Part shown: in pieces, positions 21,281 to 62,091 of the stretch | How positions within the stretch are numbered: position 1 is the first letter of the stretch | Layout: each line of letters begins with the position of its first letter | Sequence record: OR067838.1 | DNA length: 64,000 nucleotides | Strand: one strand, 5' to 3' | Source: Escherichia phage KKP 3954 | The notes under the pieces: generated by a model | What the model was told of the DNA's origin: nothing | Seen by the model: only the letters and a program-made list of their open reading frames with translations | Database searches by the model: none | Position numbers and translations under genes: made by a program

Positions 21281-23956
21281 TTAGTCGTAATATTTCAAAC
21301 CTGTAATGAACTTCGATCCCCAATCCGCACTTGCGGCGGTGAACGTCAACATCCAAGTTGTAGCTGTACCAGTGAAGACCTCTCGTTGCACAATACCATC
21401 AGTGTGGTAAATGTCCACGCCAGTATGTCCATTCTTAGGAATAGTGAAGGTAACAGCACTGGTAGTGTCTCGTGCATAAGAACAAACAAATGGTGTCCCC
21501 GCCCAAACTGGATTTGTCATATCCCCCATCTCAAGCTGTGGAACCCAAGCAATAAGACCTGCCATACCATCTCCTGCGAAAGTGTCTGATCCACTTGCAT
21601 TCAAAGCTATAATCTCATAGGTTATAGATGCTTGTTTGGCAACTGTCACTTTGTGTAGAATTACACGATACCAACCATTCCCCATATCGATTATGTTTGC
21701 ATCTGCACCTGTAAATGTTCCAGCTACAAGATCATAAGTCCCTTCGTTAATCTCATCTCCTGAAGTCAATTTGAGTTTCACTTTAGTGATCCCATCTGGC
21801 TTCAAGAATACGGATGCCGCCCAGTGCTTACCTGCTGTAATATCAGAAGCTGTATTCACTGCTGATAAAATATGTTGTCCTGAAGTTGTAGAAGGTGTTA
21901 ACTTGTAAGTGTTAGCCGTAGTTCCAACCGGAGAGTTGATTGTTGATGCTGTGACTGTCAAGTTCGTCTTCAACCACGGGGAAGCTGTTGTCAAGTTATT
22001 GTTGATAAAGATATGTATACGGTTGGCTGCTACAACACGTCTACCTTGTGGAGTTGTACCAACATATTCTAAAGGTGCTACGGGAGCAGAACTCTCTGTA
22101 GGTACAAGGATATCTCCAGAAGCCCTGGCATAACGGTTACTCCTGTTGACCTTTACATCCGCCGGAATAGTTTCTTGCGTCAAATCATAGTCCATCACAA
22201 TCACCACAGCATTCACTGCGAGATAAGAACTATCTTCGGCAGTTACCACACCTTGATAAGTTGCTCTACAACCGATACGACAATCCCCATCAGCAACCGC
22301 TGTAATAACGCCTGTAACGGGGTCAACTGTTGCTACCGTAGGATCATTAGAGAAATACTCAACAACCATACCAGGTAAGCTTGCTGCCCCTGTTGGCGTT
22401 ATTTCTGCTACCATTGTTTGTGTTGTTCCTACATCCATCGCAGATAAGCTAGGAGTGTAAACGCTCAATGTTGAAGCATATCCTCCAGAGGTATCTGATA
22501 AAGTTGTTCCTTCAGCGTTTAAGGCTGTCATACCTGCATCAAAACCACCTTCTGCATGGAAAGTCATTAAACCAGTAGATGATATTGTCATGTTTGCAGG
22601 GGCAGAAGAAGTGTATTTAATATTGAAAAGTTTACCTCCTTCTGGGCTAACAGAATGTGTCAACTGTTTAGTTCCACCTACAATACAAATTCCTAAAGAA
22701 TCTGTAGTTAAGCCAGTTGCCAGAACATCACCCGTAATCACGGAGCTTGCTATTGGTGTGAATTTATTATAGTTTAGACCACTATTGAACAGATACGAAG
22801 CTTTCCCATCTTTCCAAATACCGGAATAATACATATCTCCATTATAAACGAAAAAGGTTCCTTGATAACCTAATTGGTTAGTAACATCCATATTCAGCGT
22901 ATGAACGCTTGTGAGCTTGTTTATATCCCAAGAACCCACTCCTTCAGGTTTAACTGGTTTTCCCACTTGGAGTGGATCTCCGCTCGCAGAATCATACCCC
23001 AAACCTAAGTTTGCAGTGTAGTTCTTACCAATAGCCCACAAGGAATTATTGATCCCAACGAAAAAAGAGTGGCGGCTTGGTGGAAACTTCCATGTTGAGA
23101 AACCTGCTGCAAAGGTATCCAGTTTAGTGTAGGTTGTTTCTGTATTAGATCTAACATATAAGTAGTTTACCATACCCGTGCCACCGGAGGTATCTCCTAC
23201 AACTATTGTCTGGGAAACTGTATTGATGTAATCTTTGACATACACTGTTTCAGTAGCGGATATCTTGGCATTGACAAAAGCTGTTGTTGTGTTATTATTA
23301 CCTGCTAAACCTTTACTAGCTCCACAAACACGCAAGGTTCCCACATTGTTGACATAAGAGCATTGGTTGTAACCTGCATCAAAAGCAACTGCTGCACTCG
23401 TTATTTGACGAGGAGTAGAAACTTCGTTAGTAGTACTTGCACCTAAACTGCCTACTGTGTTTTGACCCGATCCATAAAGAACGCCACTATTCATTAACCA
23501 GAGAGTGTTATTATATCCTCCCTTAACCTCTTTAAGATTGGCTAAAGAGATAGTCCCCGTTATTACAGATGGAAAGCTGGTCCAAGTAGTTACACATGCA
23601 TCCATACCACCTGCTGCTATAGATCCTACCAACCCTGCTGTCAATCCTGAATATTGCCATCCCCCACTATTAGTTTTAATAATAAAACAACGATCTGCGG
23701 TAAACACATCCGCTACTACAGTAGAAGCTAAGTAGAAATTATTGAATCGTGCACTACGAGTTCCATCTGCAATCTCACCAAAAAGGTTTGCACCTTGAGT
23801 AAACAATCTACCATCGTTAAGCAAAATTGCTAAACTACTGTTAGAATTACCAGCATTGTCTGGGTAATCTAAAGTGATTACTTTTTTAACAATACCCGCT
23901 GGCAGAGGAACGACACCAGTACTGGTCATAATAGTAAATATTGGAATTGGAAACAT
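21281..23956 (-). CDS. tail fiber/tailspike-like protein (receptor-binding candidate)
   Basis: 891 aa, Gly/Thr/Ser/Asn-rich; GGAGGG RBS; last gene of tail block. Confidence 0.55.
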   Translation of the reverse strand: MFPIPIFTIMTSTGVVPLPAGIVKKVITLDYPDNAGNSNSSLAILLNDGRLFTQGANLFGEIADGTRSARFNNFYLASTVVADVFTADRCFIIKTNSGGWQYSGLTAGLVGSIAAGGMDACVTTWTSFPSVITGTISLANLKEVKGGYNNTLWLMNSGVLYGSGQNTVGSLGASTTNEVSTPRQITSAAVAFDAGYNQCSYVNNVGTLRVCGASKGLAGNNNTTTAFVNAKISATETVYVKDYINTVSQTIVVGDTSGGTGMVNYLYVRSNTETTYTKLDTFAAGFSTWKFPPSRHSFFVGINNSLWAIGKNYTANLGLGYDSASGDPLQVGKPVKPEGVGSWDINKLTSVHTLNMDVTNQLGYQGTFFVYNGDMYYSGIWKDGKASYLFNSGLNYNKFTPIASSVITGDVLATGLTTDSLGICIVGGTKQLTHSVSPEGGKLFNIKYTSSAPANMTISSTGLMTFHAEGGFDAGMTALNAEGTTLSDTSGGYASTLSVYTPSLSAMDVGTTQTMVAEITPTGAASLPGMVVEYFSNDPTVATVDPVTGVITAVADGDCRIGCRATYQGVVTAEDSSYLAVNAVVIVMDYDLTQETIPADVKVNRSNRYARASGDILVPTESSAPVAPLEYVGTTPQGRRVVAANRIHIFINNNLTTASPWLKTNLTVTASTINSPVGTTANTYKLTPSTTSGQHILSAVNTASDITAGKHWAASVFLKPDGITKVKLKLTSGDEINEGTYDLVAGTFTGADANIIDMGNGWYRVILHKVTVAKQASITYEIIALNASGSDTFAGDGMAGLIAWVPQLEMGDMTNPVWAGTPFVCSYARDTTSAVTFTIPKNGHTGVDIYHTDGIVQREVFTGTATTWMLTFTAASADWGSKFITGLKYYD

Positions 23957-23997: not shown

Positions 23998-26022
23998 CTA
24001 TCGTGTTACAACAACCATGTCCACGATATCACCCACACCAGGATACGTTAATTGCAAAATTGTTACTGCGTTAGCAGTAGTTGCTATTTCTGTATCATTC
24101 AGTGCTCCATAAGACGCATCTAGTGTAACCGTGTGTCCCGTTGTATCTTGAATCAAATAAATCATTGCTGAAAACGCTTTAGGTTTTGTAGAGCCAGTGA
24201 CACCAGGCCATGCTCCAACTGTCAGAGCGTCAGTTACTGTAACAACATACATATTGGAAGTTCCAGAAGGAGTCCAAGATGCTCCAGAGTTGGTAGTAGT
24301 TGTTTCAAGTTCCATGAAACCTGCTGTAACTCTAGTTGGTGTTATAGCTTCCGTAGGATCTGATCCTGATATTTCGATCCAGTTTCCATCAGAACGACCA
24401 TACGTCAAGCCGTCTTGAGGGGCTTCTGGTATACTAGGAAGAGTTCCTATAAGTGTCCACGTAGAAGAATCTGTTTTCTTAAACACTGCTCCAGTGGTAG
24501 TATTGAAGGCGTAATCATTGATAACACCGTCTCCTGCGACTGGATTAGTTGTTGCTACAAACCACTGTGCGCCGTCCTTACCGTTGGTCCCATCAATACC
24601 GTTGGTTCCGTTTGTTCCAGGATCACCCTTATCTCCTTTATCCCCTTTTTCACCTTTGTCGCCTTTAATACTTCCCATGTCAACAAAAGATGCGGAATTG
24701 GTGTCTTGATCGTAGGTATAGATGTAAAGATTACTAGTGTCTTCAGTTAAGTAGGCATCGCCATAGTTATTGTAAACAGGTAGAGCTTCACTGTTCGGAA
24801 CATGACCTTTAGCTGTAATTGATGTTCCTCCAAGACTACCAACATTCATCCATTCCGTAGCATCTTGAACCCAAACATACAAATCATTATTAATTTTATA
24901 TGCGTCACCTACTTCTCCAGTCGGAGGAAGTTCAGCTTCGCTGTTCAGAACCCCGATAATCTCTAAACCTGATCCTGTTGCACCCACTGGTCCTTGTGGA
25001 CCTAATTCGCCTTGTGGTCCTCGTTCTCCTTGCTCTCCCTTGTCTCCTTTTGGACCTTTAAGCGAGGCAATAAAATCTACTTCTGTCCCTTCATTACCAG
25101 CATCCAGCCAACTTTGATATGCAGATTTCCCTTCATCTCCATCTGTTCCATCTAGACCGTCTTTACCTGCCTCACCTTGTGGACCTTGAGGACCAACAAT
25201 ATTACCCATGTTGACCCAAGCTGTCCCATTGGAGACATAAAGATTACCACTGATAGAATAAGCTTGGCTTACGTTTTCAGAGTTAGGTTGTGGTAAGTTA
25301 CTTGTAGAAGGCAAATCCCCACGATAATCAAAACCATTAGCGTTGACACCAGGTGCACCCTGTGGACCTGTAGGACCAACGTCTCCTTTATCACCTTTTA
25401 TAGAGGCAAGAAAGTCATAAACAGATCCTGTATTACCATCTGCCAACCATACCTCGTAAGCTGATTTCCCTTCTGGTCCAAGAGAAGAAATAAGTTTCCA
25501 AACAGAACCGTCCCAAGCGTAAATCACATCACCTACGATATAACCATCCCCTGCAACGTTACCTGTAGATGGTAGTTCACTAGTGCTTGCTAATGATCCT
25601 TTAATATTAAGTTGAGCACCAGTATCCCCTTTCAAAGAAGCAAGCCATTGTGCTTCTGTTCCAACAAAACCATTATCAAGTGCGATCTGATAAGCCGATT
25701 TACCAGCTTCAGGTATTGCTTCTGACAAATCATCGATCTGTTGTTGCACTGCCGTAAACTTGGCATTGATAATTGCTATATCATCAGCGGTCCCAACACT
25801 TTGCCATGCAAGGGAAGAAATACCACCTGTGGTGGCTGGCGTAGAGTTTGCTGGAACTACTTTAGGAAAAGTTCCTTTCCATTGGTAATAATTCCCTTCT
25901 GCCGCTAACAGCAAAACTTCACGGGAATTACGTAATGTAAAACCTGCCTCAAAGCTGCGACGTTTTCGATAAGTAGCTTCTACCAGATCGGCTATCGCAC
26001 TATTAGGTCTTGTTAAATTCAT
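23998..26022 (-). CDS. collagen-like repeat tail fiber protein
   Basis: Several Gly-X-Y runs (GPQGPQGEAGKDGLDGTDG, GDKGEKGDKGDKGDPG) and three repeats of GKSAYxxWLxxGxxGxxxDFxASLKG. Confidence 0.6.
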   Translation of the reverse strand: MNLTRPNSAIADLVEATYRKRRSFEAGFTLRNSREVLLLAAEGNYYQWKGTFPKVVPANSTPATTGGISSLAWQSVGTADDIAIINAKFTAVQQQIDDLSEAIPEAGKSAYQIALDNGFVGTEAQWLASLKGDTGAQLNIKGSLASTSELPSTGNVAGDGYIVGDVIYAWDGSVWKLISSLGPEGKSAYEVWLADGNTGSVYDFLASIKGDKGDVGPTGPQGAPGVNANGFDYRGDLPSTSNLPQPNSENVSQAYSISGNLYVSNGTAWVNMGNIVGPQGPQGEAGKDGLDGTDGDEGKSAYQSWLDAGNEGTEVDFIASLKGPKGDKGEQGERGPQGELGPQGPVGATGSGLEIIGVLNSEAELPPTGEVGDAYKINNDLYVWVQDATEWMNVGSLGGTSITAKGHVPNSEALPVYNNYGDAYLTEDTSNLYIYTYDQDTNSASFVDMGSIKGDKGEKGDKGDKGDPGTNGTNGIDGTNGKDGAQWFVATTNPVAGDGVINDYAFNTTTGAVFKKTDSSTWTLIGTLPSIPEAPQDGLTYGRSDGNWIEISGSDPTEAITPTRVTAGFMELETTTTNSGASWTPSGTSNMYVVTVTDALTVGAWPGVTGSTKPKAFSAMIYLIQDTTGHTVTLDASYGALNDTEIATTANAVTILQLTYPGVGDIVDMVVVTR

Positions 26023-31104: not shown

Positions 31105-31734
31105 TTAATCTATTTGCTTGAGAAGCGTATACATGCGTCCTGTTTCATCCCCAGTAGATTCCATGTATAGGGAACCTAAACCACCAATACCATGAGGCGG
31201 TTTGGTAGCATAATAAGAACTAAAACCAAAAGCTGATCCTGCTTTTGCTCCAAGACGGTAGCTACTAATAATAGGGAAAACACTTAGCAACTGTTCTAAA
31301 GCTTGATCAGATTGAAGACACAGGTTGTAGAAAAACACATCAAAGGTTTTATTCAAACCTACGTAAGTATTAAGCGTTTCACGCTCTGTTCCTGTGAAAC
31401 GGGCGAAGATATCAATTATGTCACCACGAGTCCCCGATGAGGCTACGCGGTAAGCCCTGATTTTTAATATTGTTCTATACTCTTCATCATCAGAGCCATT
31501 ACGTTCGATCCCCATTTCTTCTCCTAAGATATCTAGGTATTTGCCTGTGGCTGTGGAGATCAAGCGGTGTTTAGCAAGATAGATCATTGCCTGATCTATC
31601 TTTTGCTTTTCACTGGATACGATGTAGAGGAGCTTGACAATGTTAGGAGAAGATTTAAAATCTTCAATCAGAAGGTTTTTAACGTCTTCATTGATACTGG
31701 CCCAAGTTGTTACATGGTCAACACTCACTGCCAT
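31105..31734 (-). CDS. putative baseplate protein
   Basis: ORF track; gene order. Confidence 0.4.
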   Translation of the reverse strand: MAVSVDHVTTWASINEDVKNLLIEDFKSSPNIVKLLYIVSSEKQKIDQAMIYLAKHRLISTATGKYLDILGEEMGIERNGSDDEEYRTILKIRAYRVASSGTRGDIIDIFARFTGTERETLNTYVGLNKTFDVFFYNLCLQSDQALEQLLSVFPIISSYRLGAKAGSAFGFSSYYATKPPHGIGGLGSLYMESTGDETGRMYTLLKQID

Positions 31735-31736
31735 TT

Positions 31737-33224
31737 TTACACTCCATACTCGTAAGAAATGTTATCAAGGTCAAAAGAAGGGACAACATTATAAGCAGGA
31801 ACTATATTATTCTCTGTATATTTACTGTCATCCTCAGTATTAAGTTTAACATAAACACGAAGAGAAGTCAAGCGTCCAAAAGCAAGTGCTGCATAAATAA
31901 CACCTTTGATTTGATCGTTCGTTACTGAAGAACCTAATTCAAAGTAAGCTTGCAGGTTTTGTAAAGCTTCTACAATGTTTTGTTTTTCTGTTCCACTTAA
32001 AGTTGTTCCGTTGACAGTTTGATAAACAAGTTTTACGGAATACATAGCAGAGGCTCCAGGAGAGAAACGAATAATTTCTTGTCCTCCGTCTTCTGTTGTA
32101 ACTGTTATGTTCGTTGTTCCATGTGTCAAAGTGTTGATTGGTTTAGTTTTATAAATAACCTCGGCAACTTCTTCAGCACTTCCTCCATAAACTATAGTCT
32201 GGAAAGTCATAGCTGGAGCATGTTCTTGATCATGCAATGTAGGGTTATCATAAATCTTCACCTTGGTAACACCATCGGTAAGCAACAGTGCTTTCACAAT
32301 AGCTGCACGTGTCCCTGCATTAGCTTCGTCTACGTTGTCATTGAAACGAGAACGGAATTCTGCATCTGTCTCAACGTCTCGACCAGGAGAAAATGAATAG
32401 AAGTTACCACTATCAAGATAACCTGTGAAGGTAGAAGAGATACCTGTAATGGACTCTACACCCACCGGATTATATCCTTTCTCTGCTGCAACTACCGGAA
32501 TTTCACTCCATTTGGTTCCAACTGGAACACTAGCATAAAATTTGATAGGAGTTACTAGTCCCACTGGAGTATCATTGGTTAAAGAAGTAAAACCAATTGA
32601 CAAGTTACCAGAATCAGAAAATACAAGACTACGATCAGCCTCTGTTAAGTTTGCCTTGATAAAAGTTTCAAGATCGGCTATAAATGTAGAAGAACCAGGT
32701 GCAAGTGTTTTACTGTTTAGTCCTCCATCTATCGCACTTTGTGCATAAAAGGTAATATTTGGAACACCTGTAGCAGTTGCATTAGCACGAGAAATTTGAT
32801 AAGCTGCAATCTTAGCATTCAACATAGTTGGTGTGCTAACATAGTAGTTCATATCGCTATCAGAGTTGAAGTAAATATCTGTGCCTAACTCGTAAGTCCA
32901 AGCTGCTTTGTTATTACTTTTAACATATGCATAACCTGTGCTTGCTGCTGCCCCTGCTCGATAGAAACCACGTTTAGAAAAGATTTCGTCAAGATAAATA
33001 CCTTCTGCACCATCCAGTGTTTGAGTATTATAAACCCCTTGCATACCTTCCCACAATGTGTAATCTGTGTATGCAATTATTCTAAACAGTTGTCCGATCA
33101 CAGTATCTTCCGAAGTGGCTGCATCTGCACCAAATGTGTTTTTTACTGCTGTCATGTAGTTGTTTAAAACATCGTCAAAAGTCGGGATTACAAATCCCGC
33201 ATCTGTCAAACCATATTCGTCCAT
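31737..33224 (-). CDS. putative baseplate wedge (J-like) protein
   Basis: ORF track; size and position. Confidence 0.4.
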   Translation of the reverse strand: MDEYGLTDAGFVIPTFDDVLNNYMTAVKNTFGADAATSEDTVIGQLFRIIAYTDYTLWEGMQGVYNTQTLDGAEGIYLDEIFSKRGFYRAGAAASTGYAYVKSNNKAAWTYELGTDIYFNSDSDMNYYVSTPTMLNAKIAAYQISRANATATGVPNITFYAQSAIDGGLNSKTLAPGSSTFIADLETFIKANLTEADRSLVFSDSGNLSIGFTSLTNDTPVGLVTPIKFYASVPVGTKWSEIPVVAAEKGYNPVGVESITGISSTFTGYLDSGNFYSFSPGRDVETDAEFRSRFNDNVDEANAGTRAAIVKALLLTDGVTKVKIYDNPTLHDQEHAPAMTFQTIVYGGSAEEVAEVIYKTKPINTLTHGTTNITVTTEDGGQEIIRFSPGASAMYSVKLVYQTVNGTTLSGTEKQNIVEALQNLQAYFELGSSVTNDQIKGVIYAALAFGRLTSLRVYVKLNTEDDSKYTENNIVPAYNVVPSFDLDNISYEYGV

Positions 33225-33466: not shown

Positions 33467-33768
33467 AGTGCGTTCTCATTACTTTTTAAATCACGAGATA
33501 CAGCTAATTCCCCAAGGTCTACAGAACCCGCTGAATGCACAAATACAGCAGCACTAAGACTAATGGCAGTAGTACCTGGGGCAATATCAGCAGGTAGGGA
33601 ATACGCCCTTTGCGTCTCCTTGTCATAGATAACCTTATACCCACCCAAATCCACACCAACTGAGAAATAAACAACTTCTGATTGCTTAACTCCGAAGTGA
33701 CGGGCTATAGCTTGCTTGTTAGTTTGTTTTGCTACCGAGCCTGTTGGCTGAGTAAACATTTCATTCAT
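33463..33768 (-). CDS. hypothetical protein
   Basis: ORF track. Confidence 0.45.
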   Translation of the reverse strand: MNEMFTQPTGSVAKQTNKQAIARHFGVKQSEVVYFSVGVDLGGYKVIYDKETQRAYSLPADIAPGTTAISLSAAVFVHSAGSVDLGELAVSRDLKSNENAL

Positions 33769-33820
33769 GGATTAATCCTCGTGTTTTAGTTTTAAATGCC
33801 CCGCCGAAGCGGGGTTTTGT

Positions 33821-36217
33821 TTAGTCGGTTATGCTTGATATCGCTGCATACTGGTTCACGGATACAGGAGTTGCGTCTATTCTAGTGTTTCTCGATGATG
33901 ACCTAACCATCAGAAACACCATAGCGCGTCCAGATCCGTCAACATACTTGAGTATCCCTGTTGTATTTGCGGATATTTGTTGTAGGAATATCTGTCCTTG
34001 CGTTGTCGATGTAATAACAGCCGGAGTAGACACCACGGCTGAACCGATTATAAATACACTTATTTTTCCGGATAATTGATACAAAAGCGCCGCAGTTCCA
34101 GAAAACGTACCGGATGCCAATGTAACATTTATATCCCCCGACAACCGGATATACGCGCTTGGTGATGCCGTTATTGTTACGGATGAAGCGTTTATACGAA
34201 ACCCTTTATAACTGGTTACGACTCTGGTAAGTGAGACAGACCCTGTTACATTTATAACGAAGTCGCCGCGAAAACCACCTTTTTGTCTAACGATGTTTAC
34301 AATTTCTATCGCCCGCTCCAGAGATGCTACAGCCCTACCAGAAACAAATCCGGAGTTCTCATCGTTACCAGTTGCAGGGTTAACAAAGATTTCTCTCGTG
34401 AAATCCATCCCTAAATAGTTTACAGCAGACCAGTTACCAATACTTCCATAATCAGTAATAGCAGGGCTTACATTCTCTACGCGCAATGGTGCATTAGTGA
34501 ATGTTCCACCAACCATCCCATTAGAGAACCCTCCGACTGGGGGCATACCACGAGCAATAACTTTACGCTCAGTACCATCTTGACCACAGAAGAAGAACCC
34601 ATAGGAAAGACAGGTATAGTTAATTTGCGACCAGTTATCCAAATCTATATAACTGTTAGCTATCACAAAATTGTGACGCATAATCATATTGCCGCCTACA
34701 TCTTCTACGTGCGGCTTTCGTAAGTGAATGTCTGTATCGTTAAATGCGAACGCCTGCCTCCACCATTCAACGACAGGTTCGTCGATAACAAAATCACGAA
34801 CTGTATCGCAAGTTATACCAGTATTCTGATTTTTTCCTTCAGCAGTCCATGCCGTTGCTGGATAGACTAATTCTGGATTGTCGGCGTTAGCACCAACTCG
34901 TGCAACATAAGGATTGGTTATACGTAGCCCGGCGTTTGCCTTATAAAGATGGATACCCTGACGCATAGCCAGCACTTTAGGGGAACGGAAATCAGCACCC
35001 CATGACCATCTAAAATACATTCCTAACATGGGTGCTGATACCAGATTACCGCCACGTTCTGTGATTCCTATACTGGTTTTTGTACCTTTACATCCAGGGG
35101 ACATTGAGAAGTTAAGACCTATCTTGACACCGCCAGAACATGCTACTGATAGGTCGAATAGGAATCCATCTGACATCGTGATATAACCGTTCACATCGGT
35201 AATATCGTTGTCAGGCGTGCCGATTAAAGCGCCAGTTTTCCTCACATAAGAAATACCTGACAACTCAAAAACAACTGGTTCTGTAGCAGCGGTGTTTAAA
35301 TCCGTCGGAGCATAATAAAAACCAACTGGTATTTGTCTGTTGAAATAGGTCTGCGCACCAACCTGATCGTAATGTACATGACGCATAAGCAGGAGCGGAA
35401 CAGCAGACTCTACACGAGAAGTAAACACCACATGAACTGGTTTAAGGCTATATTTATATGCCTCCAAAGCTGTAGCGTTGGCGTAAGATGATGCCATACC
35501 CGCTGTGATATAAGAGTTCAGAGCGTTGATTTTTTCTGTGCCTGTTCCGGCGAAATCATCAACGTAAAGCTCATTAATCAGTTTCGCATACAATCCATTC
35601 ACGATTGGCATCGGCGTGACTTCGGAAACAATCTCCCATCTGGATCCACCAGTTGACACTTTCTGACCCAGAATAAGAGTTGCATCAGCAGCCATAGCCT
35701 GGATATTACTAAAGCCGTGCACATAACGATCTCCACCCTCACTAGAGATGTTTTCTTTAAGAGATGCATCGCCAACACTAACCCACGCTCCTAATTTAAC
35801 CTCACCTGTGCTATCTGGAGTTGAACCAGTTGGAACTATTTTTGGTAGGTCACTATCCCAAGTGTAGCACTGACCACCTGCAATATACCAAACAGCATCA
35901 GTAGATGTGGATACAGTAGCCCCCTCTTCAAAACTACCATCAACAAGTGTTAACCCCGCTTCAGCAAGACTACGACGCCACTGTTCACGATCATTAAGAA
36001 GATTGTTATTCAACTCTTCCTGAACAGTATTACCATTTGAGGATTGTATTAAATCTGCTCCATCTGTATCTTTCAACTGGGTGGCTAAAACCACCCCAGT
36101 GTCAGTAAGAAAGTTGGAAACTGTGCTTTTAACAGTTTTATCAGGTTGATCTAAAACCAGGTAATCTGAACCATTAACTTTTGATGTTTCGGGTAAATTA
36201 GTAATTGTAGTTGACAT
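33821..36217 (-). CDS. tailspike/tail fiber protein
   Basis: 798 aa; GGAG RBS; Gly/Ser/Thr-rich body consistent with a beta-structure enzyme domain. Confidence 0.55.
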   Translation of the reverse strand: MSTTITNLPETSKVNGSDYLVLDQPDKTVKSTVSNFLTDTGVVLATQLKDTDGADLIQSSNGNTVQEELNNNLLNDREQWRRSLAEAGLTLVDGSFEEGATVSTSTDAVWYIAGGQCYTWDSDLPKIVPTGSTPDSTGEVKLGAWVSVGDASLKENISSEGGDRYVHGFSNIQAMAADATLILGQKVSTGGSRWEIVSEVTPMPIVNGLYAKLINELYVDDFAGTGTEKINALNSYITAGMASSYANATALEAYKYSLKPVHVVFTSRVESAVPLLLMRHVHYDQVGAQTYFNRQIPVGFYYAPTDLNTAATEPVVFELSGISYVRKTGALIGTPDNDITDVNGYITMSDGFLFDLSVACSGGVKIGLNFSMSPGCKGTKTSIGITERGGNLVSAPMLGMYFRWSWGADFRSPKVLAMRQGIHLYKANAGLRITNPYVARVGANADNPELVYPATAWTAEGKNQNTGITCDTVRDFVIDEPVVEWWRQAFAFNDTDIHLRKPHVEDVGGNMIMRHNFVIANSYIDLDNWSQINYTCLSYGFFFCGQDGTERKVIARGMPPVGGFSNGMVGGTFTNAPLRVENVSPAITDYGSIGNWSAVNYLGMDFTREIFVNPATGNDENSGFVSGRAVASLERAIEIVNIVRQKGGFRGDFVINVTGSVSLTRVVTSYKGFRINASSVTITASPSAYIRLSGDINVTLASGTFSGTAALLYQLSGKISVFIIGSAVVSTPAVITSTTQGQIFLQQISANTTGILKYVDGSGRAMVFLMVRSSSRNTRIDATPVSVNQYAAISSITD

Positions 36218-38387: not shown

Positions 38388-39305
38388 TTACTCGGTAACG
38401 TCCACACTAATGTTTGCCATTGTCAAAACAGTAAGTGCAGGAATATTGCTCGAATCCAAAACAGGTAATGCATTTTGGGGATTAAGTTTTTTGTATAAAG
38501 CATACAACCCAAAACCACGTAACAACTCTCCAGCGTGGAAGCCAAAGAAGACTCCGTTATCACTATCTGGTCTAGGAGCGGAACTCCAACAGCCATTCAT
38601 AACATGATTAGGACCAAGAACAATATAATTTTCCTGAATAAGTTCAAAACAGCGGTCTGCTACTATTTTAATGTTAGGAATTTCTGAATCATACCCAGCC
38701 ATCCCCATTATAGCACATCCTGCCATAAAGAGCGCAGACATGTGACTTGTAAAGTCATCTACAGGTGCTGCCACTTCTCCGTTGGGATAAAATATTGTTG
38801 GTGTTCTTCCTTCGTTGTTGTCTTGGAACCACTTTAGATAGTTGATCCAGTTTTTACAAACTGTTAAAAGTTTTTCAGGAACTTCTGCCCCTCGTTGTTT
38901 CAGTTCGTATACTGTATGACACGCACAGAAGAATGCTCGTGCTTCATAACCATCCCAAGCTTTATCGTTCCAATGATACATTGTGAACTCATTCTTGTTT
39001 CCGTATTTATGAGCATCCCAACGATCCCAAACATAAGCTTGTGCCATTGGTCCAGGCATCACAGGGGCAAACTTATTATAAAACCACATTTGTGAATCAT
39101 ATAAAAAGTCTATACTGTTGTTCATACGAACCCAATCAATATCTCTCCCTTTAAAACAATATAAGGATGGGTATTGATAACCTGGGTAAGGAATACCACG
39201 CCAACCGTCATATAAGGCTGTGTTAGGATCACTGATATTGGAAAATGGAATGATTCCTGGAGTATAATTCAAACTGTTAAGTTTGTAGTCCAGTATTGTA
39301 TACAA
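38388..39305 (-). CDS. hypothetical protein (TTG start, no RBS; frame open upstream into 39269..41266)
   Basis: ORF track; 37-nt overlap with upstream gene. Confidence 0.45.
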   Translation of the reverse strand: MYTILDYKLNSLNYTPGIIPFSNISDPNTALYDGWRGIPYPGYQYPSLYCFKGRDIDWVRMNNSIDFLYDSQMWFYNKFAPVMPGPMAQAYVWDRWDAHKYGNKNEFTMYHWNDKAWDGYEARAFFCACHTVYELKQRGAEVPEKLLTVCKNWINYLKWFQDNNEGRTPTIFYPNGEVAAPVDDFTSHMSALFMAGCAIMGMAGYDSEIPNIKIVADRCFELIQENYIVLGPNHVMNGCWSSAPRPDSDNGVFFGFHAGELLRGFGLYALYKKLNPQNALPVLDSSNIPALTVLTMANISVDVTE

Positions 39306-42366: not shown

Positions 42367-43101
42367 TTAGGCTCCTGTTGGTTTTAAGGACTCGGCACTT
42401 GAGCTACCGCTCTGAATGTTACGAACCGTGTGCGTGTGAGTATGGAATCCGATGCCATTACCATCTGTCATCAAACCGTTCTGATCTATTTTAAGACCAT
42501 TAATATCTGCTACGCCGCCTTTGAAAGTTAAATTACCACCTTTTAGATCCAAAGTCCCTGTGCCATCTGTAATAGTAATACCAGAGGTAGTAATATCTAT
42601 TCTCATCCCTTGACTATTCCATATTGAAATATTACCTGTAGGGTCGAAAGAAGCGTATGTGTTTTTGTTATTAGAAATAACTACCTTTTCAGAATCTACG
42701 GCTTCTGTTGAATCTGTTCCTGTAGCTATTTTGGGAATAAAACAAATAGGGTATAATCCACAAGGCTGCATAAAAGTGGATGACGAAGAGGTTTCCCCAC
42801 TAGTTTGCAGTGCATTAGAAGGATCTCTTTCAGAAAATATAACAGTTCCTAAATCGCCAGCTTTAATAGGGAATGAGATTCTTCCTGTCCCACCACCATT
42901 AACCATAAAAGGAACGTCTTCAAAAGTAGGATAATCTATTTCATCTTCACTAGATCGTGTGTTTTTAACAATAGACTCTAAAGTGACAGTTTTAGCACCA
43001 TAATTAACGCCAGTCACACGGACTGGCAAGGCTGTATGGACTTCTGCTAATTGTTCTGTCATTAAGCCACGCATTGCTGTGACAAAATTCAATGCATCCA
43101 T
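42367..43101 (-). CDS. putative baseplate spike/assembly protein
   Basis: ORF track. Confidence 0.45.
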   Translation of the reverse strand: MDALNFVTAMRGLMTEQLAEVHTALPVRVTGVNYGAKTVTLESIVKNTRSSEDEIDYPTFEDVPFMVNGGGTGRISFPIKAGDLGTVIFSERDPSNALQTSGETSSSSTFMQPCGLYPICFIPKIATGTDSTEAVDSEKVVISNNKNTYASFDPTGNISIWNSQGMRIDITTSGITITDGTGTLDLKGGNLTFKGGVADINGLKIDQNGLMTDGNGIGFHTHTHTVRNIQSGSSSAESLKPTGA

Positions 43102-44111
43102 TATTTCTCCTTAGTCATTATTTCAGACACGGATACACACTCCACTTCAGTAACCCACTCTTTACCCTCTTTATCACCATTGTGAGAAACAGAAACAACT
43201 TTAAATGGACCATCATAATCTCGGCTTTTTAACCAGATTGTTTTTTCTGGTAAAATTGCACCGTTCATTTGGCATTTAAATTTAACACCATCTGTAGGTT
43301 TCTTTGCCTTCTTAGAGGACTTGGTAACTTTTTTAGTAGGTTTAATATCGTTGTGGAATGGTTCTGGACTTCCTATCAGACCAGTTTCAGGGCTAATATA
43401 GGCGCTACGTGCACTAGACATTTGTGAACGAGGAGTGACATAAACAGATCCATCTTGTATTGACACATTGTGATCAATACTTTTACAAATATGTTCTAGG
43501 TAATGTGAAGTGTTTCCACACATAGCTGTTGCTGAAGATAAGGTTTGATCATTATCTACGTGTATATTACCTTCTGTAGTTCCTAAATCCTTTACCAAAT
43601 CTGTAACAACACGTTTGATTTTAGTTCCTTTTGGATAACTGCGGCTTGTTCTTGCTTCTGCAATGTTAATACCGCCATCCAAACAGTGTAAAGTGGTTTT
43701 CCTGTCTACCGAGTCAAAAGTATCACTAACCCACTGGATAGTTCCTTTGAAGACCATAACCAACTCTTCACCTTCGTATCCTACCGCTAAAGCAACAGCC
43801 AAGTTATTTCGGATACCACGGTTTATATAGTTAACAGTATCATCCGAAAGGTTATAAACTACAATCTCTGCTTGGTTAGGATCTTTGTTATTATCTTTCT
43901 TAATGCTGAAGGTTATTTGATGGTCTTGCAACAAATACAAATTAGAAGAGGATTTTTCTGTTGTCCCTAACTTGGTATCCAAATCTACCGTAGATTTAAA
44001 TGCCGAGTTCTTAGTTCTCTTCTGTATTGTGTTTGTGGCAGAACCAATTAATAATTTGTATGCCCTGTTTAAATTAGGGGCAGGAGCTTTTGTATACTCT
44101 CTTTCTGCCAT
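43101..44111 (-). CDS. putative baseplate hub/tail protein
   Basis: ORF track. Confidence 0.45.
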   Translation of the reverse strand: MAEREYTKAPAPNLNRAYKLLIGSATNTIQKRTKNSAFKSTVDLDTKLGTTEKSSSNLYLLQDHQITFSIKKDNNKDPNQAEIVVYNLSDDTVNYINRGIRNNLAVALAVGYEGEELVMVFKGTIQWVSDTFDSVDRKTTLHCLDGGINIAEARTSRSYPKGTKIKRVVTDLVKDLGTTEGNIHVDNDQTLSSATAMCGNTSHYLEHICKSIDHNVSIQDGSVYVTPRSQMSSARSAYISPETGLIGSPEPFHNDIKPTKKVTKSSKKAKKPTDGVKFKCQMNGAILPEKTIWLKSRDYDGPFKVVSVSHNGDKEGKEWVTEVECVSVSEIMTKEK

Positions 44112-44120
44112 ATTATCTCC

Positions 44121-44535
44121 TTACGCCTGATTAGGTTTGTTATCAATATAAACCAATACAAAACGTTTATCTCGACCTGTAGTTGTATACCCAGGACGAC
44201 CATTAATCTTAACTGTATCTACTATATACAATTGACCATCTGGCACACTTTCAAGATATTTATAAGGTTTAAGAAGATCTAAACCATTTGTAACTTTGAA
44301 ACTTATACTTGGATCATCTCCAGATAATCCTATCTGACATTGCCAAGACTCGTCCCTAGTGTTCCACCTTAAACGAATGTCATAATCAACTCCATCCAAT
44401 GTAACTGTATATGTTTGATCAGGTATACTCTTCAGTTTTCAGATACCATGCAAAATAAGTAGAATGGTCCTCCAGATAAACTGCACTGTAGCCTGTATTA
44501 CTTGTAGACCTTGTTGTTTTAGAATAAGTTGTCAC
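44121..44535 (-). CDS. hypothetical tail protein; track ORF 44121..44399 (TTG, no RBS) plus probable N-terminal extension from GTG 44535 (RBS GGAGG), joined by a +1 frame break at a T4 run
   Basis: GTG 6 nt after GGAGG; downstream frame open across junction; break at plus 44436-44439. Confidence 0.4.
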
Positions 44536-44537
44536 TA

Positions 44538-45239
44538 TTAACCTCCGTTGTTTGTTGGGGTATTAGTAGCTTCAGCAGTTCTTACTGTAATATCTGACTT
44601 AGGACCATTCGAAGCAACTTGACCTTTCACATCACCACCAGTTGACTTATTTGGTGCTGTTTTTACAGCAATAGCGTTAGTAGTGGCCTTAGAAACGAGA
44701 CGGATTTGTTCAAACTCTAAATCAAATTGCATAGCAAATTCAGATTTATAATCATACGAATAACCTTTGAGGATAACATTTTCAAAAGTTCTGTGTTCTG
44801 TCAAAAGAACTATTGGTTGTCTTGCCTCAAATATTTGGTCTAGATATTCTATTGCTTGAGAAATCCTTGCTCCATTTACACCTGCACTGTATAATTGATC
44901 TCGCATAAGCCGAATTGGTGTTTCGGTAATTATACCTGAAAGTTTAAATCTGTTGTTTTTTATTTGAACGTGGTCACTTACATCCGATCCTGATTCTACT
45001 GGAAAACTTGTAACATCTGCCTCACGAGTTACACCTACTTCAGGGACCGAATCGAAAGTAATTGCTTTAAAGTTTTGAATGTATTGATCACTTGAACTAT
45101 TATAAACACTTGCTAAAATGCAGAAACCATTATCACCCTTTACAGTAGATGCCGAGGTATTTTTATTCTCGGTAGAGTTGATTTCCTGTTCTGCCTTATA
45201 GACGGCTCTCACCGACTGTTGTGGAGTCATTGCTGCCAT
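44538..45239 (-). CDS. putative tail protein
   Basis: ORF track. Confidence 0.45.
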   Translation of the reverse strand: MAAMTPQQSVRAVYKAEQEINSTENKNTSASTVKGDNGFCILASVYNSSSDQYIQNFKAITFDSVPEVGVTREADVTSFPVESGSDVSDHVQIKNNRFKLSGIITETPIRLMRDQLYSAGVNGARISQAIEYLDQIFEARQPIVLLTEHRTFENVILKGYSYDYKSEFAMQFDLEFEQIRLVSKATTNAIAVKTAPNKSTGGDVKGQVASNGPKSDITVRTAEATNTPTNNGG

Positions 45240-45365: not shown

Positions 45366-47355
45366 TTAACCACCAGTGTTAGATTGTCCACTTAGAGTTG
45401 AAAGAGACAAACGTTGGAAAATACTATTTCCGCTATTTTGAATTCTTGCATCAAGAATATTTCCAAACTCGGAAGAAGGGCTGATCGTAACTTTGATAAG
45501 ATCACTTGGTATTGCTACCGTATTCTCAACAACAGGTTGATTACGAGCCAAACTTACGTTAGGTGTATAGGCTGATTCACGTAAATCTTCAAGAGGATTA
45601 CCAAATCCAAAAGCACGTGTCCTTGTTTGTTCTCCTCTCCACATACGACCAATATCTTGTGTATCAATACCTGTTAAATTATACAACCAATCTGCTACAG
45701 GATTGCTGTCTCCACTTTGCGTTGCCTCGTATGCTTTTTGTGCCAAAGATTTATTAGGATCTGTGTTGTCTCCGAAGGTATCTGGGAATGTTTCTTTAAG
45801 CCAATTGGTAAAAGATCCGAAACCATCTCCTAATTCTTTAGCAAAACCACCAAGTTGAACTGTTGTTTTACCAAGTTCTTCACCTAAATCTTTGGCGAAC
45901 TGATCTAGCACTTTAACGTTATCCAACCAAGAATCATCTTTAGGTAAAGCTTTTACAAAACCTTCTAAGAAATGGTTCTGCATACCTTGACCTACAAGCT
46001 GAACTGTTGCAGCAAAACGAGTAAACTCTTTAGAAGCATCTATTTGTTCTTGAGTTAATGTTGCACCTGTTCTTTGAAGCATTTTCAATACTTCATTATA
46101 CCCTTCGCCGTTTTTACTAAACATACGTTGGTAGTGCATAAGGTCATCACCAAGGTTTTCAAGAAGTCGCCCGATTTGAGCGGAGTTCATACCTCGACGC
46201 TCACCTTCATTAACAGTAGCCTGAATAAAAGCTAAAGGATCGTTCTGTAAAGGTTTAAGCTGTTCTGGATTCCATCCAAACAAGTTCATAATGTCAGTTA
46301 TGCCATTATCACCGCCTTTCCACTTCCCTTCTTTCTCATTCCACTTTGCAGCTAAAACTGTATTACCAAGACGTTCACGAACGTCTTTAATATTATCTAT
46401 TGATTTAATAATATTTGCAGAGTCTACACCGTTCTGTTCACCCCAAGCTGTCATTGCCAAAATAGCGTTGGCGTTTGTCTGAACGTTTTCAGCACCACGG
46501 CTTACAAGTTTAATTCTTTCGTTAGTATTCATCAACGTGTTACCAACTACAGAACCACCTGCAAACAGCCCAGCACCTATTAAAGAGGATGCAATCATGC
46601 GTGGATTAAGACCTGCCGCACCTTCTTTTAATTGTCCATATCGACGATCACGATCACGTTTTTGTTGAGCTAATTCACGCTTACGGTTGCGTTCTATATC
46701 TCTAAGTTCACGATTTCGCATACGTATACGCATTTTAGCTTCTGCTTCTAACTCTCTACGAATACGGCGACGACCGCGAACCTCGTCTTCTATTTCAGCA
46801 TTCTTTTCACGATGCGATCTGCGTAAAGCATCCAACTGGTGAGCAAGAGCTTGGTTCATACGTTGAAGAGTTATTTCACCCTTTTTGTATTGCTCTACAG
46901 CTTTACCCATAACATCTCTAGCTTCTTGCATAGCGCCAGGACTGGCTTTACTAAATGCTCTTGCTCTGTAGTTAAAGTTCTGCAAACGAAGATTACCTAA
47001 GTCTTCCCTACGTGCTGCTGCTTTAGCTTCGCGTTCAGCAGCTTTACGAGCTTTTTTCTTCTTCTCTTCCTTGCGGGGTTTTAGGAGTTCTAGGTCTGCC
47101 AGATCCGCCTACAGGAGCACCCGCTCCAGCGGGAGTAGGTGCTCGCATAGGTTTTTGACTTTGAGTTTGAGCTTTCTTAAGTTCACGCTCAATCTCTTTC
47201 ATTTGTTGTCTAAACTTGGTCATGTTCATAGTGGGTTGCATTTTATTTGCAAACTTCTGAACACTCAACACGGCATCTTTTGCTTCCTTGAGACTGTTCT
47301 TGTCCACCTTAAACGTAACCACGTTACTAATTTTGGAGGCGTTAATTTCTAACAA
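45366..47355 (-). CDS. tail tape measure protein; two ORFs (47044..47355 and 45366..46985) joined by a +1 frame break at a 6-nt homopolymer
   Basis: TTG start after GAGGA; both parts K/R/E-rich helical; break at plus T6 47053-47058; removing one base fuses the frames. Confidence 0.55.
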
Positions 47356-48661: not shown

Positions 48662-50072
48662 TTATTTTGATAACGGGGGGCTTAACCCCCGCCGTATTAG
48701 TTTGCAAGTACGGTTAGTCAGGACGTTGACCTGAACTTTAACGTAATGGAAGAAGCCAGCGTAAACATATTCAATCTTCATCCCATCAACCAGACGAGCA
48801 TTGATTTGCGCATCGGTCATATCGGCACGAGAAGGAATATAAACAATAGGTTTCAGATCGACACGCAAACCAGTCTCTTCAGAAGTAACAACTTCATTAG
48901 CGATGGAACCGTTGAGGATACCTACTTGGATCGGGTTAGCCAGAACAGCTTGTCGAATCAAAGCCAGACCGTTTGAAGTAGCACGAACACCACCACCCAG
49001 CATAGACTGTTGTTTAAACAGTGTAAACAGTGATTCTTCTGTGCGAGCTTTAAACCACAAAGCATGAACAACATAGTCAACAAAGAAACCGCTAACCATC
49101 AATCCATCACGATAGAACAGAGTTCCATGCTCTTTACGATAGATGTTACCGTTCTGTTGAACAATATTGTTTTCCGAAGTCTGATCCAGTTTCTCGATCT
49201 CTACTCCTACCAGTGTTTTACCGTGAAGGGTAGTTAAACCAGGTTGACGAGAACAGATTGCACCAACAACTGCTGCTTCTGGGAATACAGAATCTGCATC
49301 AGTCATCCACAAAGCAAAGCAAGTGTTATTATAACCGAGGTCATTCAGTCGTTCCAGAACGTTATCTTCTGCTTTCGTTTTAATTCCAGGTTCAGAGCTA
49401 GAGAAGAAGTAAACTTTATCATTCTCTTCTACCCATGCAGCCAAAGCTAGAACATCTTCTGTTTCATGGGAATCTGAAAGGGTCCAGAACCAGCTACTAT
49501 CAATATCATGCAGAGCAGCGATATCTTCCGTAATAGCATTAGCATAGACAGTTTCTTGAGTGAAACCTGTGCTGTCAATAGAACCAAACTTACCTTCTAC
49601 TGGAGTGAAAGTCATTGCAGCGCCGTTGTTAGCTACTGTAAACAGTGGGCCATAAACAAGATCTGCATTGATCATTTCAGTCAGACCAACTACAATCTCT
49701 TGTGCAGTTGCAGTGTCATCAGCAATGAATTTAAATTCTTTTTTCTTGGGTACCATTTTTGATGGTAATTGTGTAAGTTGCACTATCTTCTACGATTGGA
49801 GTTAGAGTAAAGTTTGTAACTTCACGCTTACCAACCATGACTTGATCTGGTGGGAACAAACCGTTAAACAGTTTGACTGCCATAATATACGCTGGATCAT
49901 TTAATCCATAACCTGCTTCCAAAAGTGCATCGGAAGAAGAGTAATATTGAATCGCTTCGCCAGTTACGTTCTGACCTGTAAGGATCAGAGGAATATCGAA
50001 CTGGGTTTCACGAATTGATGTAGCACCATACAGTAAAGTTACGGTTGCTACCTTTTCACGAAAAGTTGCCAT
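48662..50072 (-). CDS. tail sheath protein; two ORFs (49731..50072 and 48662..49783) joined by a +1 frame break at a 6-nt homopolymer
   Basis: AGGAG RBS before ATG 50072; break at plus T6 49739-49744; combined about 470 aa upstream of tube gene. Confidence 0.55.
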
Positions 50073-55235: not shown

Positions 55236-55715
55236 TTAGTCCTTCTTGACTTTAACGCCCATTGCGCCTATACTCAAACCTTTAAGAACGCCGTCTTTAC
55301 GAGCTTGATATAATTCAGGGTCGTTGAATTGGATTTTAACGAGGGGAGTTCCTTCCACAACGAGTTCGTCACCAATGTAACAATCGACTTCATTTACCCA
55401 AGCTTTAATTGGAGAAAACTTATCGGTGTTCTTCATGTGACCAAGATTACCACTAATGTTGGTAATATTCTCATTGAAGTTGTCAACCATCTTCCTGATT
55501 TCCAAATCAGACATGCGCTCTCCGTGGAGATCGTCTTCTTCAGGTGGACAATACAAGACCTCAATAACCTGCATCTTTTCTTCATCAAATTTATTTTGTT
55601 TGACTAAAGTTTCAGGTTTTTGAGATGGTATAGAATCTTGTTGGGATTCAGAATTCTCTTTAAAACCAGCGAAGGTTTTGAAGAGTTCCCACAGTGTATC
55701 TTTATTGAGTTCCAT
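55236..55715 (-). CDS. hypothetical head protein
   Basis: ORF track. Confidence 0.4.
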   Translation of the reverse strand: MELNKDTLWELFKTFAGFKENSESQQDSIPSQKPETLVKQNKFDEEKMQVIEVLYCPPEEDDLHGERMSDLEIRKMVDNFNENITNISGNLGHMKNTDKFSPIKAWVNEVDCYIGDELVVEGTPLVKIQFNDPELYQARKDGVLKGLSIGAMGVKVKKD

Positions 55716-55808
55716 TTGAAACCTCTTAAAAACAGATATCCCATAAATCTTAGTCTACAGGATATTTGTTGTTTTGTCAATAGAAAAATTAAAAAATATT
55801 AAATATTT

Positions 55809-62014: not shown

Positions 62015-62091
62015 GGGACTCGGCAGGATTCGATACCTGCAATTCCAGAAGCCTATTGGCGACTGGGGGTTTACCTTAACTCTACAAGTCC
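62015..62091 (-). tRNA. tRNA-like gene, anticodon unresolved (irregular anticodon arm, 8-nt T-loop)
   Basis: 7-bp acceptor stem GGACTTG/CGAGTCC and T-arm GCAGG-TATCGAAT-CCTGC, but no canonical 5-bp/7-nt anticodon arm. Confidence 0.4.

Follow-up and report, generated by a model that had tools for sequence, protein, structure and literature searches.

A baseplate plug gene of Escherichia phage KKP 3954 split by one extra base, most likely a consensus error

Two small open reading frames on the minus strand of Escherichia phage KKP 3954 (OR067838.1; the 64,000 nt stretch analysed is called the window throughout) are, judged from sequence comparison, a single ordinary and already known phage baseplate plug gene, 44535..44121, whose frame is broken by an extra A at position 44424. 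The extra base is most likely a consensus error and not a property of the phage, a reading to which a probability of roughly 0.8 can be attached. Removal of base 44424 restores a gene of 137 amino acids. Translation starts at a GTG at 44535 behind a GGAGG in the end of the Dit-like tube-initiator gene, and the extra base is one of a group of insertions, spread over the window at GTAC-derived sites and in homopolymers, that also breaks five other genes.

The first frame (ORF1, 44535..44419) encodes 38 amino acids followed by a stop, one codon more than the 37 counted in the earlier note, and the second (ORF2, 44399..44121) encodes 92 amino acids from a TTG in a frame offset by +1 relative to the first, as that note had reported and as both a reading of the strand and the ORF list bear out. 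The GTG (44533..44535) lies behind a Shine–Dalgarno GGAGG (44542..44546), identical in three relatives, from which it is separated by a 6-nt spacer (ttaata); the minus-strand reading thus agrees with the initiation signal described earlier, and in AV126, Mt1B1_P17 and SKA64 the CDS is likewise annotated from this GTG. The GGAGG is part of the final codons of the Dit-like gene upstream, whose TAA stop is 2 nt ahead of the GTG. No purine-rich Shine–Dalgarno sequence occurs 5' of the ORF2 TTG (44397..44399), again as previously noted, and by the translation of the AV126 ortholog this TTG is really an internal codon, Leu46.

Both frames can be placed on one orthologous protein. Plug codons 1–37 (44425..44535) are read in the ORF1 frame, are 100% identical to Mt1B1_P17 gp133 down to 44425 by tblastn, and align to residues 4–39 of phi92 gp136, so that the suspicion that ORF1 is the N-terminal part of the real gene was well founded. 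Codons 38–137 and the stop (44121..44423) are read in the +1 frame, as placed by tblastn and Pfam, and comprise ORF2 plus eight further codons 5' of its TTG; residues 33–137 of the Mt1B1_P17 protein match the window in frame -3. Because the two pieces are each 96–100% identical in amino acid sequence to two parts of the same orthologous protein, their arrangement exceeds what chance would give. The earlier note had proposed a gene of about 126 amino acids from 44535; the start and the single gene are upheld by the 414-nt ortholog CDS, whereas the length is 137.

The position of the break differs from the one first proposed, a plus-strand T4 run at 44436..44439. Two stops, a TGA at 44441–44439 in the ORF2 frame and a TGA at 44421–44419 in the ORF1 frame, bound the sole stretch that is open in both frames (44438 to 44422, 17 nt), and the T4 run falls within it. 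In an alignment of the window with three relatives, however, the run occupies invariant columns, and the only length difference at the locus is one extra A on the coding strand (T on the plus strand) at 44424, where the window reads GAGTATACCTGAT and the relatives read GAGTAT-CCTGAT, or GAGTAC-CCTGAT in AV126; the same base appears in the whole-window indel lists. Since the run is invariant and the ORF1 frame keeps full identity to the ortholog through codon 37, beyond the run, the break cannot be placed there. The extra A instead creates the reading ACC TGA, the stop at 44421–44419. It sits in a GTATAC context 12 nt downstream of the T4 run, which removes the homopolymer as a cause, and the resequencing of that run suggested in the earlier note would aim at the wrong bases.

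The window belongs to a phAPEC8-like coliphage, a myovirus of the genus Phapecoctavirus (Stephanstirmvirinae). Across the locus it matches about 70 Phapecoctavirus genomes at 95–99.6% identity, and an intact one-frame CDS is found in every relative checked, these being 60 phage records among the matches listed and one metagenome contig. AV126, Mt1B1_P17 and SKA64 each carry a single annotated 414-nt CDS here, encoding 137 amino acids from the same GTG, and the N-terminal extension is thus unannotated in OR067838.1 only, the full gene having been annotated already in relatives. All 60 matches listed lack the extra base (they span 199 positions of a 200-nt query or 195 of 196), as do the 30 matches listed for a 1401-nt query, every one of which spans 1400 nt, and the sole metagenome contig carrying the stretch (L008) is intact without the insertion. 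Exact-pattern scans of IMG/VR found neither the allele with the insertion nor the allele without it, and are uninformative. At least 80% of the 137 residues are recovered in a single tblastn piece from 136 phage records, down to about 70% identity. For more distant homologues, in rV5-like and PVP-SE1-like phages and in phages of Rheinheimera and Vibrio, the alignments begin at residues 28–40, in every case upstream of Leu46, which argues against a start equivalent to 44399. The ortholog alignment that the earlier note had called for was thus carried out, and the orthologs do not start at the equivalent of 44399, the outcome it had named as telling against its view.

These alignments bear directly on the arrangement given by the ORF track, in which there would be two genuine genes, one for a peptide of 38 residues and one for a plug protein of 92 residues initiated at TTG 44399. 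The 92-aa ORF by itself still matches the plug family (Pfam PF22479), and a look-up of its product in an assembly index returned one Logan contig, L007 (ERR4622921_1644), with a gene call of exactly these 92 residues; the same look-up with the 38-aa ORF returned no match. L007, however, is a short, noisy assembly of a different Phapecoctavirus, 98.6% identical, which lacks the 44424 insertion and carries three homopolymer deletions opposite window positions 44452, 43241 and 42686. The deletion at 44452, from T4 to T3, splits its plug gene by a different frameshift and yields the identical 92-aa call, an example of how exact-protein look-ups can provide artefactual support for a truncated ORF. 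With no Shine–Dalgarno sequence before the TTG, annotated orthologs that start at the GTG, and no homologue alignment that begins at Leu46, two separate genes are scarcely credible.

The assignment of the repaired protein to the plug family is secure. It matches PF22479 (Pam3_gp18) with 77 bits against a cut-off of 24.2 (E 1.7e-21), residues 31–131 falling on positions 3–100 of the 101-position profile; it also matches PHROG 349 (1.9e-25) and the 139-aa phi92 gp136 plug chain in the PDB (21vq_E, E 4e-69, residues 2–137 against 4–139), as well as PDB chains of Pam3 gp18 and of a 'spacer protein'. The minus-strand gene order is tape measure, Dit-like tube initiator, the two small ORFs, hub and spike, so that the gene lies where a member of this family is expected, between the tube initiator of 233 amino acids (44538..45239; PF21821, E 1.5e-26) upstream and the baseplate hub of 336 amino acids (43101..44111; PF22759, PHROG 196) downstream. 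A family member should also be a single ORF that includes the first beta-strand (residues ~37–45); this is the case in all relatives and is not the case in the window, a discrepancy that is probably due to sequence error. Initiation at Leu46 would drop residues 34–45 (TEEYPDQTYTVT), whose aligned counterparts in the solved homologues are structured.

Some product names in the RefSeq entries of relatives are apparently wrong: gp148, named 'DNA methyltransferase', is a prohead serine protease of XkdF-like type (PF14550), two further CDSs with the 'DNA methyltransferase' name match nothing in Pfam, and the 'tail fiber protein' gp134 is a Dit-like tube initiator. The loci concerned are 55239–55718 and 44538–45239 in the window, both on the minus strand, and 24684–25193 and 31610–32293 in record L010.

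Programmed frameshifts are known in phage tail modules, lambda G/GT being an example, and it might be supposed that a programmed +1 ribosomal shift joins the two ORFs here, for instance by slippage of tRNA-Lys on A AAA at the A4 run, which does fall within the 17-nt interval that is open in both frames. The two-frame arrangement is not conserved, however, every relative examined having a single frame, and frame 0 goes on encoding the residues of the orthologs (TEEY) over the four codons past the run, which a shift at the run would turn into LKSI. Neither a stop nor a rare codon comes after the run, and inspection by eye revealed no stimulatory element. The homology changes frame at UAU|A|CCU (44425/44423), four codons downstream of the A4 run, at a point where a +1 slip would find no re-pairing. 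The tail frameshift that is known is a -1 event between the tube and tape-measure genes, and a lambda G/GT-type shift was rejected for the plug locus, which lies downstream of both the tape-measure and the Dit genes. What the locus shares with lambda G/GT (-1) and with prfB-type +1 sites is a pair of overlapping frames in the tail module and a short A run. In direction of shift and in genomic position it is wrong for lambda G/GT, and unlike programmed frameshifts it has neither a slippery site with a stimulator nor conservation in any relative; recoding at this site is accordingly a most improbable account.

The plug gene is not the only one affected. When the whole window was compared for insertions and deletions with AV126, Mt1B1_P17 and BI-EHEC, the region shared by all of them held ten indels that only the window has. 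By tblastn, frameshifts in the window split 6 of the 51 Mt1B1_P17 proteins with a match, and the same test found none split in AV126 and one in BI-EHEC; in each gene split in the window, the two halves are 96–100% identical in amino acid sequence to the ortholog. Besides the gp133 plug (+1 at 44424), the split genes are a gp120-like tailspike annotated for colanic acid degradation (+2 at ~28829), a gp128-like tail protein (+2 at ~39300, where GTAC became GTATAC at 39301), the gp135 tape measure (+1 in an A run at ~47057, leaving ORFs 47044..47355 and 45366..46985), the gp139 tail sheath (+1 at GGTACC, ~49750, and a further +1 in its last codons at 48707) and the gp146 head decoration protein (+2 at ~54006, again GTAC to GTATAC).

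For six of the ten unique indels, a relative has a GTAC site no more than 2 nt away (binomial P ~1e-11), among them the two exact changes of GTAC to GTATAC and the plug site itself, which is GTAC in the closest relative, AV126; another three are changes in homopolymer length. Single-base length differences outside coding sequences were also observed, at window positions 48680, 26067, 55788, 62069, 61900, 63127 and 18655, in the G/C runs of terminator-like hairpins, in intergenic A/T runs and in the tRNA region at 61–64 kb. These are mostly unique to the window; that at 55788 belongs to AV126, the window agreeing with Mt1B1_P17 and BI-EHEC, and that at 62069 is seen against BI-EHEC only.

The same motif is altered by substitution. 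Of the 21 ancestral GTAC sites in the region that all three relatives cover, 11 show a substitution unique to the window, against 0.6 expected, and every one is a G>A or C>T change of the outer base. About half of the GTAC sites that relatives conserve appear in the window as ATAC or GTAT (for example at 21393, 22017, 23604, 24596, 27615, 29159, 30647, 31165, 33435, 42655, 45681, 57351 and 58680). Window-unique substitutions are not enriched at Dam (GATC) or Dcm (CCWGG) motifs, the other two tested, and between AV126 and Mt1B1_P17 24 of 30–32 GTAC sites are unchanged, with few substitutions of mixed type. Substitutions at GTAC sites are nonsynonymous and synonymous in the ratio 9:8, compared with 144:789 elsewhere (P 4e-4), and of the G>A and C>T changes within coding sequences, scored against Mt1B1_P17, 9 of 15 (60%) are nonsynonymous. 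The changes therefore ignore coding constraint, as errors would, and from the sequence patterns they look like systematic miscalls made where the GTAC motif is modified.

Two features of BI-EHEC (OL505078.1) concern the same motif. That record carries two +1 GTAC insertions of its own, opposite window positions ~23178 and ~23604 (CCGTACTCACC against CCGTAC-CACC), which split its gp118 tail gene, and at window positions 42655 and 57351 the window and BI-EHEC have changed on opposite sides of the GTAC (GTAT against ATAC). The effect thus recurs in an independent record.

Motif-specific miscalls accompanied by homopolymer errors are the signature of a long-read consensus from DNA bearing a modification on which the basecaller was not trained, and long-read basecalling at a modified GTAC motif is a possible technical cause of the insertion at 44424. 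Five further frameshifts unique to the window, together with the indels and substitutions linked to GTAC, point to systematic consensus errors and not biology; with its sheath, tape-measure, plug and tail genes broken, a phage would be unable to form plaques, and the break in the plug gene is for this reason, too, best regarded as an error. Against this reading stand the fact that 44424 does not lie within a homopolymer, the classical site of such errors, and the indirect nature of the argument, the error being inferred from comparison and not observed in reads or quality values. A single intact gene would be expected to yield a peptide spanning TEEYPDQTYTVTLDGVDYDIR.

It is also conceivable, though unlikely, that the frameshift is a genuine and recent mutation, the plug gene being a pseudogene or its product being supplied by rare frameshifting, by reinitiation at TTG 44399 or by co-infection with wild-type phage. 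The extra base is, after all, present in the sequence as given, the flanking halves are as close to the orthologs (96–100%) as a very recent event predicts, GTAC sites are under real pressure across the genus, and the changes of GTAC to GTATAC (+2; 39301 and 54006) are the outcome expected when a G^TAC cut is filled in and religated; if the 44424 site is taken alone, a very recent event in a mixed or defective stock could account for it. The plug is, however, a conserved structural part of the baseplate, and a 92-aa product would be without residues 37–45, which are conserved even in the distant solved homologues. The allele occurs in no other record among the matches listed and the metagenome contig, and the five further essential structural genes are broken with no compensating indels, a state incompatible with plaque formation. 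Either those five lethal frameshifts must be real as well, or 44424 must have a separate cause.

Among the 256 tetranucleotides, GTAC is the one most strongly under-represented, both in the window and in the relatives L004, L005 and L006, with a Markov-corrected observed/expected ratio of 0.13–0.26, and the 64 kb contain 26 sites where about 200 would be expected; this compositional bias indicates strong avoidance, at the level of the genus, of a GTAC-specific restriction activity. A stretch of the window of ~2.6–2.9 kb (33497–36106) is without a nucleotide match in any of AV126, Mt1B1_P17 and BI-EHEC and probably represents an exchanged tail-fibre or receptor-binding module. Of the 26 window GTAC sites, 5 fall in this stretch (33572, 34107, 34572, 35082 and 35374), a density much greater than in the rest and consistent with recent acquisition from elsewhere.

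A more far-reaching interpretation holds that the GTAC changes, 44424 included, record a real GTAC-directed process acting on the phage DNA, in one form of which methylated C in GTAC would be deaminated, and fill-in and religation of G^TAC cuts would give GTATAC. If that were true, the sequence would capture a phage population under mutation at the very tetranucleotide that its genus avoids most. In a milder version the changes would be miscalls that betray a GTAC-specific modification, not reported before, in the virion DNA of Phapecoctavirus, made by the host or by the phage. This interpretation is very improbable. For a phage-encoded GTAC methyltransferase, the three 'DNA methyltransferase' annotations of Mt1B1_P17 were considered and have no Pfam methyltransferase match, and a literature search combining GTAC with Phapecoctavirus returned nothing specific. 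The BASEL study describes this phage group as highly susceptible to restriction–modification systems. Both the annotations unbacked by Pfam and this susceptibility count against the putative GTAC modification.

Consensus error being the preferred explanation, the consequences are largely for annotation. The plug should be given as one CDS of 137 amino acids from GTG 44535, or flagged as frameshifted, and a like correction is needed in the five other structural genes before the sequence is put to comparative or structural use. The split itself brings no new biology, the plug gene being already known, annotated in full in relatives and structurally solved in phi92. The GTAC pattern alone merits a further look, mainly as a flag of data quality: it warns that OR067838.1, and probably BI-EHEC also, carries systematic errors, and it may hint at modified GTAC in the DNA of Phapecoctavirus-type phages.

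The role of the protein can be gauged from two solved relatives, phi92 and Pam3, in which six Ig-like copies around a trimeric hub lock the wedge heterotrimers onto it (PMC13450770; PMC9942802). In phi92 six copies of gp136, with an Ig-like fold, surround the hub and form the docking site of the wedge, and the genes run in the order gp135 tube initiator, gp136 plug, gp137 hub and then gp138 (PMC13450770). In Pam3 six gp18 monomers lie between the wedge and the hub–spike and fasten the wedge's helical bundle to the hub (PMC9942802). By analogy with both structures, the window protein would be expected to have the Ig-like two-sheet fold and to act in six copies as the docking point between hub and wedge.

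Cyanophage Pam3 gp18 (7yfz_h) belongs to the same family, PF22479, and shares the arrangement of six Ig-like monomers between hub and wedge, but it is a protein of 106 amino acids without the ~30-residue N-terminal extension found in Stephanstirmvirinae, and the direct sequence match of the Pam3 chain to the window protein is weak (E 0.003). The phi92 plug (gp136; 21vq_E) resembles the window plug more fully, aligning with it through the N-terminal 45 residues, and phi92 shares the order of tape measure, tube initiator, plug, hub and spike as well as the subfamily Stephanstirmvirinae; it belongs to another genus, with ~70–75% identity for phi92-like phages, and its gene is uninterrupted where that of the window has a 1-nt insertion. 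The Phapecoctavirus orthologs, such as Mt1B1_P17 gp133 (YP_009987058.1, 'virion structural protein'), AV126 WPK38091.1 and phAPEC8_00164, are 97–100% identical in amino acid sequence, have the GTG start and Shine–Dalgarno sequence in common with the window and encode 137 amino acids, and they differ from it in having no extra base opposite 44424.
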